From: Escherichia phage vB_EcoM-pEB20
Length of the DNA: 64,000 bases
Strand: one strand, 5' to 3'
Sequence record: OP114733
Below are positions 13,490 through 33,267 of the stretch, piece after piece. Position 1 is the stretch's first letter; each line of letters begins with the position of its first letter. Both the position numbers and the translations under genes were made by a program. Below the pieces are notes generated by a model. The model was not told the DNA's origin. It was given only the letters and a program-made list of their open reading frames with translations, and made no database searches.

Positions 13490-13903
13490 ATGACCCGTAT
13501 CAATTTAACACTTGTTTCTGAACTGTCCGACCAACATCTTATGGCTGAGTATCGTGAATTACCACGCGTATTTGGTGCAGTCCGTAAACATGTTCAAAAC
13601 GGTAAACGTGTAAAGGATTTTAAAATCTCTCCAACATTTATCTTAGGCACAGGTCACGTAACATTCTTTTACGACAAACTCGAATTTTTACGTTTACGAC
13701 AAATCGAGCTAATCGCTGAATGCTTGAAACGTGGTTTCAAAATCAAGGACACGACTGTCCAGGATATTTCCGACATCCCTGCCGAATTTCGTAATAATTA
13801 TGTCCCGTCCGAAGCGTCCATTGCGATAAGTCAAGCACGCTTAGATGAAAAAATTGCTCAACGTCCGACTTGGTACAAATACTATGGTAAATCAATTTAC
13901 TAA
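13490..13903 (+). CDS. denV: endonuclease V (pyrimidine dimer DNA glycosylase) DenV
   Basis: 137 aa [29 protein letters not shown]...; near-identical to T4 endo V. Confidence 0.95.
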
Positions 13904-13910
13904 GGAAAAA

Positions 13911-14171
13911 ATGAAAATGTATCAAGAATTTATCACTGAAGCAGATGCCAAAGGTCCTAAATTTAAAGTTAAAGCTTTCATTGGTGATGCGGAAGACTTT
14001 GGCTCATTAAAACGTAATGGGTATTCTTTCTTAGGTGGCAATGGTAAAGAAATCAACACCTATGCAAAACGTAGTGAAATTGCTTATGTTGTAGCAAGCC
14101 CTAAAGTAGATGTTGACGATATTGGATACGATTTTAACAACTTCGGAATTATTTCTGGCGGTAAAGATTAA
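13911..14171 (+). CDS. internal-protein-like protein with CTS
   Basis: 86 aa starting MKMYQEFITEA; SD AAGGAAA. Confidence 0.6.
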   Translation: MKMYQEFITEADAKGPKFKVKAFIGDAEDFGSLKRNGYSFLGGNGKEINTYAKRSEIAYVVASPKVDVDDIGYDFNNFGIISGGKD

Positions 14172-14174
14172 ATT

Positions 14175-14204
14175 GTTTACGCTTAAGTATTAATATGGTA
14201 TAAT
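14175..14204 (+). promoter_or_regulatory. early promoter
   Basis: GTTTAC 14175, 18 nt spacer, TATAAT 14199. Confidence 0.5.
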
Positions 14205-14235
14205 TACTCTATCAAAACAAACAAGGAAACAAAAA

Positions 14236-14550
14236 ATGAAAACGTATAAAGAATTTATTGCAGAATCCGCCAACCAACGCGTTGAAGGTGGTTATATTTG
14301 GATTGAACAAGTTGAGCCACCGAGCCGCACTTCTACAGGTAAATGGAAAATTACTGTTGACGGTCCTGGCGGTAAACGTAGGACTCTTAAAGAAATTAAC
14401 GGGTACTATGAAGAAGCTCTTTCGGATGCAGGAACTTACATGATGCAAATCATGATTAAAAACCCTGAAAACCGTTTTGCAGCTAAAGTCTTCCGCCGTA
14501 TTGGTAATAAACTTTATGATGCATACTCTAAAAACTTCCCTAAAGAATAA
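14236..14550 (+). CDS. internal-protein-like protein with CTS
   Basis: 104 aa starting MKTYKEFIAES. Confidence 0.65.
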   Translation: MKTYKEFIAESANQRVEGGYIWIEQVEPPSRTSTGKWKITVDGPGGKRRTLKEINGYYEEALSDAGTYMMQIMIKNPENRFAAKVFRRIGNKLYDAYSKNFPKE

Positions 14551-14575
14551 CATAAATTAAAACAATAGGAACAAA

Positions 14576-14905
14576 ATGAAAACATATCAGGAGTTTATCA
14601 CTGAAGTTACATTATCTGCGGAACAGAAAGCTGCTATCGAAGAAGGTAAAAATCCCAAAGTAACATATAAAGTAAATAGTAAAGGCGTTTTTGATGGCTT
14701 GGTTCAAGACCCTGAATTGAAAAAAGCTCTTTCTAAAACTAATGCGTACTTTGCTCCTAAATTTAACACAGCCGGTGTACTTATTGGATTGGATGTATTC
14801 AACTCTAAAGGTGTTCTATCTAATGCCTTTGGTTATGCCGCTAACAAAATTACCAAAGCCGCATGGGAATCCAATACCAAACAAGCTCAAAAGCCTAGAG
14901 TATAA
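14576..14905 (+). CDS. internal-protein-like protein with CTS
   Basis: 109 aa starting MKTYQEFITEV. Confidence 0.65.
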   Translation: MKTYQEFITEVTLSAEQKAAIEEGKNPKVTYKVNSKGVFDGLVQDPELKKALSKTNAYFAPKFNTAGVLIGLDVFNSKGVLSNAFGYAANKITKAAWESNTKQAQKPRV

Positions 14906-15617: not shown

Positions 15618-15922
15618 TGACAACTATTGAAGTTTTTGAGTATTGTTATAACAGCCCAGTATGCAATAAAAGGGCTCTTGTAGAAAATTACGAGATTTAC
15701 CATTTTAAACCTAAACGATACCGTTTGACTAAAGGTCCGTTCGCAGGGCAGCAGGTTCTTTGTACTGCTCCTAATGCACGGTTGATGACTAGTATTCCGC
15801 ATTTCAAAATGGAATTTATTGACGGGCCATTTAAGGGATTAATCACTCAAAGTTTAATGGCGTTTAATTCCGACCCATTTTTGATTAAAGAAAAAACTTG
15901 GATAAATTTATTTTCTAATTGA
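15614..15922 (+). CDS. hypothetical protein
   Basis: 102 aa ORF overlapping upstream stop. Confidence 0.5.
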   Translation: MMTTIEVFEYCYNSPVCNKRALVENYEIYHFKPKRYRLTKGPFAGQQVLCTAPNARLMTSIPHFKMEFIDGPFKGLITQSLMAFNSDPFLIKEKTWINLFSN

Positions 15923-15928
15923 GGTTAT

Positions 15929-16291
15929 ATGAAAGCATATCAAATTCTTGAAGGTACACATAAAGGCACTATTTATTTTGAAGATGGTACTCAAGCCCGG
16001 ATTATTGTCTCTAAAACTTTTAAAGAAGACGCTATTGTAGACCCAGAAATTTTCTACGGTTTGCATGCCCGTGAAATTGAAATTGAACATCAACCTAAAG
16101 TTAAAATTGAAGGTGGTCAACATCTGAATGTTAACGTTCTGCGTCGTGAAACTCTAGAAGATGCAGTTAAGCATCCGGAAAAATATCCGCAGCTGACCAT
16201 CCGTGTATCCGGTTATGCAGTTCGCTTTAACTCTCTGACTCCGGAACAGCAGCGCGACGTTATCGCTCGCACCTTTACTGAGAGTCTATAA
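15929..16291 (+). CDS. grcA: autonomous glycyl radical cofactor (GrcA/YfiD-like)
   Basis: 120 aa; glycyl radical motif RVSGYAV; C-terminal ~70 aa matches E. coli GrcA as recalled; a T4 homolog (Y06I) is described. Confidence 0.85.
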
Positions 16292-16515
16292 TGGCTAAAT
16301 TGATTATAGAAGGGTCTGAAGATGTTTTAAAATGTTTTGCCGCCTGGTTTAGTTGCTCAGGCGAGCAATCATTCACTGAAGCATTTAGAACGGGTGATAT
16401 TACTGGAAAATATCCGACAACCGATATCACTGTACGTGGATATGGTATTAATGAGCCTATCCAATTGGTCGAATATGACCTTGCCACCGATGAGGAAATT
16501 CCTTATGTCGATTGA
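16291..16515 (+). CDS. hypothetical protein
   Basis: 74 aa ORF. Confidence 0.45.
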   Translation: MAKLIIEGSEDVLKCFAAWFSCSGEQSFTEAFRTGDITGKYPTTDITVRGYGINEPIQLVEYDLATDEEIPYVD

Positions 16516-16771
16516 AGACATCAAAGGCTACAAGCCGCATACCGATGATAAAATCGGTAAAGTGAACGCTATTAAAGATGCAGAAGTCCGTCTTGGATTG
16601 TTGTTTGATGCTCTGATTGAAGAAGCATATATCTTGAAAGAAAATGAAACAGAGCAACAAACCAAAGAAGATATGGATGCAGTGCAGGCTCTTAAGTATG
16701 CTAAGCAACATCTAAAAGAAGCCAGCATGTGGGCGTGTCGTGCAGTATTTCGACCTGAGGAAAAATACTAA
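16505..16771 (+). CDS. small helical hypothetical protein
   Basis: 88 aa from ATG 16505 with GAGGAAA SD; track ORF start 16337 is out of frame with neighbour and rejected. Confidence 0.45.
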   Translation: MSIEDIKGYKPHTDDKIGKVNAIKDAEVRLGLLFDALIEEAYILKENETEQQTKEDMDAVQALKYAKQHLKEASMWACRAVFRPEEKY

Positions 16772-18057: not shown

Positions 18058-18401
18058 CCAAAATGTTGGCTTTAATAGTTGGCTTGGTTTCATTTAACGC
18101 TCTTGCTAATACTACATATACTGATGTAACGGAGTATACAAACAGAACGGCGTCTGATTATTGCGGTAAAAGTCAAGAGTGTAAAGTAGATTTTTCACAA
18201 AAATTGTTATATGCGTATAAAGACGGAGAAAAAGATGGGGCGTCTAGTAGGTTCAAGGCGTCTACCTTAATTAAAAGATACTATAAAAAATGGCAAATAT
18301 TAGAATGCTCGGTGGCGGAACCTAAAGATAAGGCAGCATGCAATTCTATGGTGGACCGTCTAGTTGACTCTTATAATAGAGGACTTGCAGCAAGTGATTA
18401 A
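18054..18401 (+). CDS. secreted Cys-containing hypothetical protein
   Basis: 115 aa with signal peptide MTKMLALIVGLVSFNALA and 4 Cys. Confidence 0.55.
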   Translation: MTKMLALIVGLVSFNALANTTYTDVTEYTNRTASDYCGKSQECKVDFSQKLLYAYKDGEKDGASSRFKASTLIKRYYKKWQILECSVAEPKDKAACNSMVDRLVDSYNRGLAASD

Positions 18402-18861
18402 AAACTATATCAAGGGCGATATTGTCGCCCTGTTTTCTAAAGGTAATAATATTGCTCACGGGTGTAATTGTTTTCATACAATGGGCGCCGGTGTAGCAGG
18501 CCAATTAGCAAAGGCTTATCCAAAAATTTTAGAAGCCGATAAACTTCAAACCGAATTCGGAGACGAGTCTAAACTCGGGACTTATTCGGTTTATGAAAAA
18601 TATTTTAAGACCCATAAAGCTTATTGCTTTAATCTTTATACACAGTTTGAGCCGGGACCTAATTTTGAGTACTCTGCTTTAATGAATTGTATAATAGAAT
18701 TAAATGAATTCGGAAAGAATAAGATAACAAAGCCTGTAATTTATATGCCAAGAATTGGTGCAGGTATTGGTGGTGGAAACTGGGATGTCATCGAAGAGAT
18801 TTTAGATACGTATTCCACTAAACTAGAAATTGTGATTGTTGATTGGGAACCGTTATTATGA
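18394..18861 (+). CDS. macro-domain-like protein (putative ADP-ribose binding/hydrolase)
   Basis: About 155 aa; GDIVAL...HGCNC...MGAGVAGQ and PRIGAGIGGG resemble macro domain motifs; start uncertain (GTG 18394 or TTG 18364). Confidence 0.55.
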   Translation: MIKNYIKGDIVALFSKGNNIAHGCNCFHTMGAGVAGQLAKAYPKILEADKLQTEFGDESKLGTYSVYEKYFKTHKAYCFNLYTQFEPGPNFEYSALMNCIIELNEFGKNKITKPVIYMPRIGAGIGGGNWDVIEEILDTYSTKLEIVIVDWEPLL

Positions 18862-30979: not shown

Positions 30980-31453
30980 ATGTTATTATCAGGCGCAAAA
31001 TATAAAGAAGAAAAACAAAAATTTTATGATGCACAGAACGGTAAGTGTCCTATTTGCCACCGTGAATTAGACCCTGATGTTCAAGGTAACCATCTTGACC
31101 ACGACCACGAATTAAACGGGCCAAAAGCAGGTAGAGTTCGTGGGTTACTCTGTTCTCTGTGCAACGCAGCAGAAGGTCAAATGAAGCATAAGTTCAACCG
31201 TTCCGGTCTTAAAGGTCGTGATGTCAACTACCTAGAATGGCTTGAAGCTCTTCTTGCTTATTTGAAACAAGATTATTCTGATAATAATATCCATCCTAAT
31301 TTTGTTCCAGACAAAACTAAAGAGTTCTCAAGACTAGGTAAAGAGGAAATGATGGCCGAGATGCTTCAAAGAGGATTTGAATATAATGAATCTGATACTA
31401 AAACACAATTAATAGCTTCATTCAAAAAGCAGCTTAGAAAGAGTTTAAAATGA
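30980..31453 (+). CDS. 49: recombination endonuclease VII (Holliday junction resolvase)
   Basis: 157 aa MLLSGAKYKEEKQKFYDAQNGKCPIC...HLDHDHE; near-identical to T4 gp49. Confidence 0.95.
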   Translation: MLLSGAKYKEEKQKFYDAQNGKCPICHRELDPDVQGNHLDHDHELNGPKAGRVRGLLCSLCNAAEGQMKHKFNRSGLKGRDVNYLEWLEALLAYLKQDYSDNNIHPNFVPDKTKEFSRLGKEEMMAEMLQRGFEYNESDTKTQLIASFKKQLRKSLK

Positions 31454-33267
31454 AAATTGAAAAAGAAATTGAAGGATTAATTCATAAAACTAATAAAGAT
31501 CTTTTGAACGAGAACGCTAATAAAGATTCTCGTGTTTTTCCAACTCAACGGGACCTTATGGCTGGTATTGTGTCTAAGCACATTGCCAAAAATATGGTCC
31601 CGTCTTTTATTATGAATGCGCATGAAAGCGGAATCATTCACATGCATGATATTGATTATTCTCCTGCTCTTCCGTTTACCAATTGCTGTTTAGTCGATTT
31701 AAAGGGGATGCTTGAGAATGGATTTAAATTAGGCAATGCTCAAATTGAAACGCCTAAATCTATTGGTGTTGCTACTGCAATTATGGCACAAATTACTGCA
31801 CAAGTTGCTTCACACCAGTATGGCGGAACTACATTTGCGAATGTCGATAAAGTTCTTTCTCCTTATGTTAAACGCACATACGCTAAACATGTTGAAGATG
31901 CAGAAAAATGGCAAATCGCTGATGCGTTGAATTATGCTCAATCCAAAACAGAAAAAGATGTCTATGACGCGTTCCAAGCTTATGAATATGAAGTAAATAC
32001 TCTCTTTAGTTCAAACGGACAAACGCCTTTTGTAACAATTACATTTGGTATGGGAACTGACTGGACTGAACGAATGATTCAGAAGGCAATTCTTAAAAAC
32101 CGCATTAAAGGTCTTGGTCGTGATGGAATAACTCCTATTTTTCCTAAACTTGTTATGTTTGTTGAAGAAGGTGTTAATCTTTATAAAGATGATCCAAACT
32201 ATGATATTAAACAACTTGCGTTAGAATGTGCAAGCAAAAGAATGTATCCTGACATTATTTCGGTTAAGAATAATAAAGCTATTACCGGTTCTTCAGTTCC
32301 AGTTTCTCCAATGGGTTGCCGTAGTTTCTTGAGCGTATGGAAAGATTCGACTGGTAATGAAATTCTTGATGGACGTAATAATCTTGGTGTTGTAACACTG
32401 AATCTTCCTCGTATCGCATTAGATTCTTATATTGGAACACAGTTCAATGAACAGAAATTTATCGAATTGTTTAATGAACGAATGGATCTGTGTTTTGAAG
32501 CTTTGATGTGTAGAATTAGTTCCTTAAAAGGAGTTAAAGCGACTGTTGCTCCTATTCTTTACCAAGAAGGTGCATTCGGGGTTCGTCTTAAACCTGATGA
32601 CGATATAATTGAGTTATTTAAAAACGGTAGAAGTTCAGTGTCTTTGGGATACATTGGTATTCACGAATTGAATATTCTTGTCGGTCGTGATATTGGACAA
32701 GAAATTTTAACTAAAATGAATGCTCATCTTAAACAGTGGACTGAAAGAACTGGTTTTGCTTTTAGTTTATATTCTACTCCTGCTGAAAACCTTTGTTATC
32801 GCTTCTGTAAACTCGATACAGAAAAATATGGAAGTGTAAAGGATGTTACCGATAAAGGCTGGTACACTAATAGTTTCCATGTTTCAGTAGAAGAAAATAT
32901 TACTCCGTTTGAAAAGATTTCTCGTGAAGCGCCATATCATTTCATTGCGACAGGTGGTCACATTTCTTATGTTGAACTTCCAGATATGAAAAACAATTTA
33001 AAGGGACTTGAGGCTGTCTGGGATTATGCTGCACAACATTTAGATTATTTTGGTGTTAATATGCCAGTGGATAAATGTTTTACATGCGGAAGTACTCATG
33101 AAATGACTCCCACTGAAAACGGATTTGTTTGTTCAGTTTGTGGAGAAACTGATCCTAAAAAGATGAACACAATAAGAAGAACATGTGGTTATTTGGGAAA
33201 TCCGAACGAACGCGGATTTAATCTCGGTAAAAATAAAGAAATCATGCATAGGGTTAAACACCAATGA
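31450..33267 (+). CDS. nrdD: anaerobic ribonucleoside-triphosphate reductase NrdD
   Basis: 605 aa; C-terminal glycyl radical motif RRTCGYLG and Zn ribbon CFTCGS...CSVCG; uninterrupted (no intron). Confidence 0.95.
   Translation: MKIEKEIEGLIHKTNKDLLNENANKDSRVFPTQRDLMAGIVSKHIAKNMVPSFIMNAHESGIIHMHDIDYSPALPFTNCCLVDLKGMLENGFKLGNAQIETPKSIGVATAIMAQITAQVASHQYGGTTFANVDKVLSPYVKRTYAKHVEDAEKWQIADALNYAQSKTEKDVYDAFQAYEYEVNTLFSSNGQTPFVTITFGMGTDWTERMIQKAILKNRIKGLGRDGITPIFPKLVMFVEEGVNLYKDDPNYDIKQLALECASKRMYPDIISVKNNKAITGSSVPVSPMGCRSFLSVWKDSTGNEILDGRNNLGVVTLNLPRIALDSYIGTQFNEQKFIELFNERMDLCFEALMCRISSLKGVKATVAPILYQEGAFGVRLKPDDDIIELFKNGRSSVSLGYIGIHELNILVGRDIGQEILTKMNAHLKQWTERTGFAFSLYSTPAENLCYRFCKLDTEKYGSVKDVTDKGWYTNSFHVSVEENITPFEKISREAPYHFIATGGHISYVELPDMKNNLKGLEAVWDYAAQHLDYFGVNMPVDKCFTCGSTHEMTPTENGFVCSVCGETDPKKMNTIRRTCGYLGNPNERGFNLGKNKEIMHRVKHQ

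Follow-up and report, generated by a model that had tools for sequence, protein, structure and literature searches.

The vs.6 locus

The subject of this analysis is vs.6, a gene in a stretch of 64,000 nucleotides from Escherichia phage vB_EcoM-pEB20 (sequence record OP114733, one strand), which in its full length is referred to below as the window. The product of vs.6 belongs with the small proteins known as autonomous glycyl radical cofactors, represented by GrcA (YfiD) in E. coli and by Y06I (Vs.6) in phage T4. The public genome closest to the window is that of Escherichia phage AV115 (Mosigvirus), with 98.1% DNA identity. On the basis of the neighbouring genes, the region around vs.6 can be recognized as the denV-to-tk early region of a T4-like phage, and the gene order vs.8-vs.7-vs.6-vs.5-vs.4-vs.3-regB in the window is the same as in T4.

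The product is covered in full (residues 1-120) by phrog_1209 (E 5e-63) and is matched by the Pfam family Gly_radical (PF01228, E 2e-18). It is 95% identical to T4 Vs.6, from which it differs at six amino acids, both proteins being 120 residues long. In phmmer searches of the PDB it matches the nuclear magnetic resonance structure of E. coli YfiD/GrcA (6owr, E 1.9e-42), and its residues 57-120 align with residues 696-759 of the pyruvate formate-lyase PflB (1h16, E 3.1e-26). Like GrcA/YfiD (~14 kDa), it is a small stand-alone protein with its own start and stop codons. The glycine radical motif RVSGY, at residues 92-96, is identical to that at residues 99-103 of GrcA, and the glycine in it, Gly95 (16211-16213), aligns with Gly102 of GrcA and with Gly734 of PflB.

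The two halves of vs.6

The DNA of the 5' half (codons 1-60) is only 44% identical to E. coli grcA, while it is 73% identical to the corresponding half of the gene in Klebsiella phage KP17 (Jiaodavirus) and in Kosakonia phage Kc304 (Winklervirus). Taken alone, its translation nevertheless resembles the N-terminal half of GrcA (BLASTP E 6e-6, 33% identity over 40 residues), with respect to which it is 7 residues shorter. Codons 61-120 (16109-16288), on the other hand, correspond in a codon alignment to residues 68-127 of E. coli GrcA with 100% protein identity. The original prediction had extended this near-identity over about the last 70 codons: the identity itself is confirmed, but its length comes down to 60 codons, as codons 48-60 have only partial similarity to E. 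coli GrcA. By these comparisons the whole of vs.6 is a grcA homologue whose halves differ greatly in age.

The two halves meet at a sharp switch, with phage-type sequence at codons 58-60 (GTT AAA ATT) and E. coli-type sequence from codon 61 onward (GAA GGT GGT CAA). A max-chi2 analysis with E. coli grcA and either Kc304 or KP17 as the parents places the breakpoint at 16106-16135 (between codons 60 and 61), with a permutation P<=0.0005. When Cronobacter phage leE was used as the phage parent the breakpoint fell inside the 5' half; this result was discarded because the N-terminus of leE is too diverged.

A second switch can be recognized at the other end of the gene, where codon 117 (ACT) is of host type and codons 118-120 (GAG AGT CTA) are of phage type. 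These three codons, or close variants of them, are present in every phage lineage examined, including the unconverted phages leE and Roth27 (a Klebsiella phage), whereas all the hosts examined have GAA AGC CTG at the same positions. The motif GAGAG (16280-16284) lies 6 nucleotides before the ATG of vs.5, which in turn overlaps the stop codon of vs.6 (TAATG), and is probably the ribosome-binding site of vs.5. We infer two reasons for the retention of the last three codons: the translation signals of vs.5 lie in them, and a conversion patch has to stop within homology. The right edge of the host-type tract is not exactly the same in T4, which switches between GAA and AGT, and in the window, which switches between ACT and GAG: the two positions are one codon apart, and we cannot say whether this difference stems from separate conversions or from a point mutation.

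Identity of the 3' half to E. coli grcA

Over the 180 nucleotides of codons 61-120 the DNA is 95.6% identical to K-12-type grcA. The 8 differences are all synonymous, and 2 of them are natural polymorphisms of E. coli; with respect to the allele of E. coli strain 382634_2f (L171), codons 61-117 have 3 synonymous differences in 171 nucleotides. The uninterrupted run of identity listed in Table 1 includes 37 whole codons (111 nucleotides), a length that has P = 0.0018 given 8 differences. The tract is matched in 5,426 of 5,426 complete E. coli genomes (5,350 of 5,432 records at 95-99% identity). As the remaining 63.6 kb of the window have no megablast match in these genomes, the vs.6 tract is the only host-homologous DNA of the window.

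This level of identity is higher than the protein sequence by itself would require. Resampling of synonymous codons according to the codon usage of the window gave an expected identity of 77.7 +/- 2.3% (z = 7.9), 86.7% being the highest value among 20,000 draws; with the codon usage of the grcA genes of other genera, the expectation was 83.3 +/- 2.3% and the maximum 91.7%. As a control, Cronobacter phage leE and two IMG/VR loci (L101 and L102) encode the identical 60 residues with just 83% DNA identity to E. coli. The comparison of nucleotide identity with its protein-level expectation, which the original prediction had proposed as its own check, thus comes out on the side of that prediction (95.6% versus 78-83%).

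Host grcA genes for comparison were drawn from 80 species. The last 180 nucleotides of E. coli grcA are 98.3% identical to those of another Escherichia sp., 92.2% to those of Citrobacter, 88.9% to those of K. pneumoniae, and 83.3% to those of Salmonella. The tract of the window is closer to E. coli grcA than is the grcA of any other genus, and the last 180 nucleotides of the T4 gene are closer still (97.8%). Since both values, 95.6% and 97.8%, exceed the identities between E. coli and other genera, the phage tract nests inside the genus Escherichia.

Composition and codon usage

The original prediction had described an AT-rich, phage-like 5' half followed by a 3' half richer in guanine and cytosine (GC), with E. 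coli-like codons such as ccg, ctg and cgc. Both descriptions are accurate. From the 5' half to the 3' half the GC content rises from 33.3% to 48.3%, and the GC fraction at third codon positions (GC3) from 0.18 to 0.38. GC3 alone was rejected as a sign of host origin, as 14% of the 60-codon windows that can be taken from the window reach 0.38; because it is not extreme, codon identity and codon choice were used as evidence instead. In the 3' half CCG is used for 3 of 3 prolines, CTG for 4 of 6 leucines and CGC for 3 of 6 arginines, as compared with 18%, 11% and 9% in the genes of the window. Together with CAG and ATC, these codons dominate the 3' half and are minority codons among the window's genes. 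When 60-codon windows are ranked by how typical of the phage their codon use is, the 3' half is found in the lowest 4.7% and the 5' half in the top 0.2%. A shift of composition and codon usage towards the donor at the breakpoint is present both in vs.6 and in KP17, whose GC3 goes from 0.27 in the 5' half to 0.63 in the 3' half.

Klebsiella phages and other relatives

The 3' half of the KP17 gene is 94.4% identical to K. pneumoniae grcA (100% over the first 104 nucleotides) and 86.7% identical to E. coli grcA. In a quartet consisting of the window, KP17, E. coli and K. pneumoniae, the numbers of sites that favour the host-tracking topology, the topology separating phages from hosts, and the third topology are 16:2:0 in the 3' half versus 0:59:2 in the 5' half; both of the 3' half sites that separate phages from hosts are located in the last codons. 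These counts point to a second, independent conversion in the Jiaodavirus phages, with a K. pneumoniae-like donor. The K. pneumoniae grcA used here was taken from a chromosome-sized record of 5.37 Mb mislabelled as a plasmid (PLSDB CP125156.1); grcA sequences from Klebsiella/Raoultella metagenome-assembled genomes, which gave ambiguous matches of 85-88%, were not used as the K. pneumoniae reference. Another PLSDB entry filed as a plasmid, LR134122.1, is also a chromosome-sized or chromosome-derived Klebsiella sequence, and the K. aerogenes grcA that it contains is frameshifted in the assembly.

By reciprocal BLAST, E. coli grcA finds 497 phage records at 95-99% identity, from Tequatrovirus and Mosigvirus, of which the 20 that are among the matches listed (H62-H80) are named after Escherichia, Shigella, Salmonella or Yersinia; phage hosts are in all cases the names written in the records. 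A further 80 phage records are 95-99% identical to K. pneumoniae grcA. Among the matches listed for this query, Klebsiella phages account for the three at >=95% and for the one that follows at 93.6%; E. coli phages reach 85-88% with the same query. Kosakonia phage Kc304 has a 5' half of T4 type together with a 3' half that is at most 77.8% identical to any host and has a phage-like GC3, and on these grounds can be taken to represent the unconverted state.

Some observations on individual relatives of the gene can be added. The homologue in Klebsiella phage Roth27 (L085:324-686; the record is unclassified, and we treat it as Slopekvirus-like by assumption) has a phage-type 3' half with 80% identity to K. 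pneumoniae. At residues 77-81 it reads CTG GAT GCG GTT GAA, where its relative leE (L086) reads GAA GAT GCT GTG AAG (L169 was also compared). The leucine and the glutamate that result are of Klebsiella type, and may derive from a micro-conversion patch or from convergent adaptation. An IMG/VR contig of 19 kb (L117) contains a grcA tail 91% identical to Yersinia artesiana grcA, with the Yersinia-type residues KNPEKYPQ and VITRTF. It may hint at a third case of host tracking, and no counterpart to it was found in the isolate phage collection. In Morganella phage vB_Mm5 (L088:39-692) the homologue is 217 residues long, with an N-terminal extension of ~97 residues, and is directly followed by a gene for an HNH endonuclease.

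Origin of the mosaic

We consider it highly probable that vs.6 is the orthologue of T4 Y06I, a spare part for pyruvate formate-lyase (PFL), and that it is an older phage grcA whose 3' half has been overwritten by conversion with host grcA. In this scheme the grcA homologue of T4-like phages would be old and full-length. Its codons 61-117 would, in the E. coli-infecting lineage, have been overwritten by homologous recombination (gene conversion) with the grcA of the host chromosome, while the diverged phage 5' half and the last three codons, with the translation signals of vs.5, would have been kept. An equivalent conversion would have occurred independently in Klebsiella phages, with K. pneumoniae grcA as the donor. 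In the infected cell, the host activase PflA would put a glycyl radical on Gly95 of the vs.6 product, the C-terminal domain would stand in for the C-terminal piece that host PFL loses through cleavage by oxygen at Gly734, and the fermentative production of acetyl-CoA and formate would thereby be maintained.

The original prediction had admitted either a recent capture from the host or gene conversion. The incongruent halves and the breakpoint agree with conversion, and conversion of an existing phage homologue fits the data better than de novo capture, because the 5' half is itself a diverged grcA homologue and because relatives have a 3' half that is not host-like at the same locus. A one-off illegitimate capture, in which a fragment of host grcA became fused to an unrelated phage open reading frame to form a new chimeric gene, would be in keeping with the sharpness of the switch and with its position within the structured domain, ~seven residues from the start (the domain is reported in PMC8683613 to begin at GrcA residue 61, and phage codon 61 is equivalent to residue 68). 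It is nonetheless improbable, given not only the resemblance of the 5' half alone to GrcA, but also the phages of Kosakonia, Cronobacter, Enterobacter and Klebsiella that have, at this locus, the same 5' half with a phage-type 3' half, and the ancestral phage type of the last three codons, which is what a conversion patch flanked by homology at either end would leave. Strong purifying selection on the 3' half combined with convergent codon choice could in principle mimic host DNA with no transfer at all: the 60 residues are (nearly) invariant across many phages and bacteria, and grcA is said to be highly expressed and codon-biased. Yet the observed identity lies above the maximum reached by resampling with grcA-type codons, and leE, L101 and L102 are much farther from E. 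coli at the DNA level while encoding the same residues. Moreover, there are 14 synonymous differences, distributed along the tract, between the grcA genes of E. coli and Citrobacter, and the Klebsiella phages have synonymous variants specific to K. pneumoniae, so that we regard an origin without transfer as exceedingly unlikely.

Since host DNA is present in phage lysates and every E. coli genome has a match to the tract, host reads might have been merged into the phage contig at a conserved stretch. The probability of such an assembly or contamination artefact is close to nil, because the same mosaic is found in the T4 reference genome and in the 497 independent phage records, the tract has conserved phage-specific substitutions and a conserved phage-type 3' end, and both the reading frame and the overlapping start codon of vs.5 are intact. 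As for direction, identity itself gives none, and E. coli and K. pneumoniae might have taken the 3' halves of their grcA genes from phages. This reversal is extremely unlikely: the host alleles track taxonomy, the nearest to E. coli being another Escherichia sp. and then Citrobacter, with K. aerogenes grcA (the frameshifted copy) coming next after that of K. pneumoniae in its similarity to the KP17 tail (92.0%); in addition, the tract resembles the hosts, and departs from what is typical of the phage, in both codon usage and GC3. On these two grounds, the taxonomy of the host alleles and the host-like codon use of the tract, the direction of the transfer is from host to phage.

Age and spread of the mosaic allele

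The event is recent by comparison with the splits between enterobacterial genera. At two IMG/VR T-even loci (L090 and L092), codons 61-117 differ from K-12 at a single site, which is polymorphic in E. coli. The mosaic allele is common to T4 and to hundreds of other T-even phages, and because it is so widely shared the event is not specific to pEB20. The 'recent' of the original prediction therefore holds with respect to the genus splits, but not to the point that any sampled E. coli allele would be identical to the tract. In the comparison of T4 (L083) with the window, the synonymous divergence (dS) is 0.27 for the 5' half of vs.6 and 0.18 for the 3' half, and ranges from 0.7 to saturation in the flanking genes; the plateau of high identity between the two phages extends over ~15865-16283 and drops right after the stop codon of vs.6.

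A number of points weigh against the explanation by conversion as formulated above. The sequence comparisons show that the gene is a mosaic, where its breakpoint lies, from which lineage the donor came and that there was a second independent event; all these conclusions rest on 180 nucleotides, from whose patterns the mechanism of recombination is read, and no event was directly observed. T-even phages degrade host DNA early in infection, and exchange should be rare. Among the 5,426 E. coli genomes no allele is 100% identical to the tract, the best being 96.7% over 183 nucleotides. Nor does host tracking hold as a general rule: a phage with a Salmonella-like or Yersinia artesiana-like tail was not found (none is >=95% identical to either), and several T4-like phages of E. 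coli, as well as some of Klebsiella (Roth27), keep phage-type tails. The score of the vs.6 product with the NCBIfam GrcA equivalog model (TIGR04365, IPR011140) is 158.6 bits, below the cut-off of 170 bits, because its N-terminal half is diverged; all the same, the T4 orthologue is annotated in RefSeq as 'autonomous glycyl radical cofactor GrcA'. Finally, because vs.6, its 5' half included, is unusually similar in T4 and in the window, the comparison suggests that there has also been phage-to-phage spread of all or part of the mosaic allele between T-even genera, and this spread prevents a count of the separate E. coli-to-phage events.

A more general proposition is that T4-like lytic phages repeatedly patch their grcA with the chromosomal allele of the current host, with at least two events (E. 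coli and K. pneumoniae) and possibly the micro-patch of Roth27. We advance this only tentatively, as we would place its chances slightly short of even. Patching of this kind may be maintained by the advantage of keeping the spare-part domain matched to the PflB and PflA of the host.

Function of the vs.6 product

According to PMC8683613, which refers to Wagner et al. 2001, YfiD and T4 Y06I are spare parts that receive their radical from the PFL activase and restore PFL cleaved at Gly734. The identity of the radical residue is taken from the same source, where YfiD's N-terminal half is also reported to be important for the binding of cleaved PFL and for activation. That the vs.6 product acts by the YfiD/Y06I mechanism is the best-supported reading, because the identical domain, including RVSGY with Gly95, has been kept; the repair of PFL proposed by the original prediction agrees with the function reported for T4 Y06I, a protein 95% identical. 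The benefit for the phage would presumably consist in a spare part that is supplied after the shut-off of host expression, with fermentation continuing under micro-oxic conditions.

The original prediction had also named the phage NrdD as a possible target. Like PFL, NrdD is a glycyl radical enzyme that oxygen cleaves, and its gene lies in the window as well, so that the vs.6 product could be thought of as a spare part for NrdD rather than for host PFL. This suggestion is not supported, and is very unlikely to be correct: BLASTP finds no significant similarity between the vs.6 product and the window's NrdD (E 6.3), as compared with E 3e-26 for PflB 696-759; the domain shares 100% of its residues with that of host GrcA; and T4 Y06I is reported in PMC8683613 to reconstitute cleaved PFL.

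Features of the region

The coordinates of all these features and of the neighbouring genes are collected in Table 1. Counts of promoter and terminator signals specific to vs.6 were no higher than in shuffled sequence.

Table 1. Positions of vs.6, its parts and other genes in the window.
Feature	Position	Strand	Remarks
vs.6 (Y06I / phage grcA) coding sequence	15929..16291	+	ATG, 120 codons, TAA; autonomous glycyl radical cofactor
GAGG, probable Shine-Dalgarno sequence of vs.6	15921..15924	+	4 nt before ATG, overlaps vs.7 TGA stop; inferred from sequence
Phage-type 5' half, codons 1-60	15929..16108	+	
Probable host-derived tract, codons 61-117	16109..16279	+	Escherichia grcA-type DNA; structured glycyl radical domain
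Perfect-match run with E. coli grcA	16157..16269	+	113 nt, 100% identical; codon alignments
RVSGY codons 92-96, glycyl radical motif	16202..16216	+	Alignments to GrcA, 6owr and PflB 1h16
Phage-type 3' end, GAG AGT CTA TAA, and vs.5 ATG (16291-16293)	16280..16293	+	Codon comparison
Neighbouring genes	denV 13478, vs.8 15042, vs.7 15614, vs.5 16291, vs.4 16505		Co-directional, tight cluster
Neighbouring genes downstream	vs.3 16771, regB 17048		regB: Pfam REGB_T4; followed by vs.1, vs, tk.4
NrdD, anaerobic ribonucleotide reductase	31450-33267		605 aa; Pfam NRDD E 2e-171, and Gly_radical

Three other places in the region drew our attention. Two genes downstream of vs.6, the vs.4 homologue (16505-16771) has a match (E 4e-18) to the Pfam Acb2/Tad1 hairpin domain, which belongs to a family of phage proteins that sequester cyclic-nucleotide defence signals. 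Between denV and vs.8 there are three small tandem open reading frames (13845-14905) whose products have MK(T/M)Y(Q/K)EFI at or near their start, a pattern resembling the N-terminal capsid-targeting sequence of T4 internal proteins; in T4, ipII and ipIII are on the opposite side of denV from these three internal-head-protein-like frames of the window. The tk.4 homologue (18364-18861) has a Macro domain (Pfam PF01661, E 2e-6).

Relation to known systems and significance

The gene and its function are already known, as Y06I/Vs.6 in T4 and as YfiD/GrcA in E. coli. The T4 gene is located, like that of the window, between vs.7 and vs.5, upstream of regB, and its 3' half has the same E. coli-like sequence; the window differs from it in having the backbone of another genus, Mosigvirus, and in the one-codon displacement of the right edge of the tract. 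With E. coli GrcA the vs.6 product shares its small stand-alone format, the C-terminal 60 residues and a detectably homologous N-terminal region, but its N-terminal half is much diverged, and the gene lies in a phage early cluster with phage translation signals. T5-like and jumbo phages also have glycyl radical domain genes, which are annotated either as pyruvate formate-lyase or as GrcA and encode the same Gly_radical C-terminal domain with similar residues. Unlike that of vs.6, the 3' halves of these genes reach just 62-75% DNA identity to E. coli grcA and, because this is at or below the protein-level expectation, show no sign of recent exchange with a host.

The closest evolutionary analogue is psbA in cyanophages. 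Intragenic recombination between host and phage psbA in T4-like lytic marine cyanophages, with segments differing in composition, was reportedly described by Sullivan and colleagues in 2006. In both cases a host-derived metabolic gene of T4-like lytic phages exchanges sequence with host alleles, and the incongruence of the two vs.6 segments in the quartet counts and the significance of the breakpoint add to the likeness. In vs.6, in contrast with psbA, the patch is ~170 nucleotides long in a gene of 363, the phages are the classical T-even phages, and there is a second event from K. pneumoniae. In a literature search that covered few subscription journals, we found no earlier description of the vs.6 mosaic or of its host tracking. 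The evolutionary pattern is a modestly interesting addition to a known gene.

There is a practical side to these results, in that grcA has been chosen as a marker for typing Straboviridae by conventional or quantitative polymerase chain reaction (2026, PMC12845203). Primers placed in the conserved 3' half, which is 95-98% identical to the host, would also match the chromosome of E. coli or Klebsiella, and could amplify E. coli DNA.

Together with its K. pneumoniae equivalent in a second genus, the vs.6 tract suggests that virulent T4-like phages exchange DNA with host chromosomes by what would be homologous recombination, and vs.6 may offer a small natural system for measuring the rate and the enzymology of this exchange. 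If true, repeated patching would represent a natural, datable record of homologous recombination from hosts to virulent phages in the best-studied phage group.

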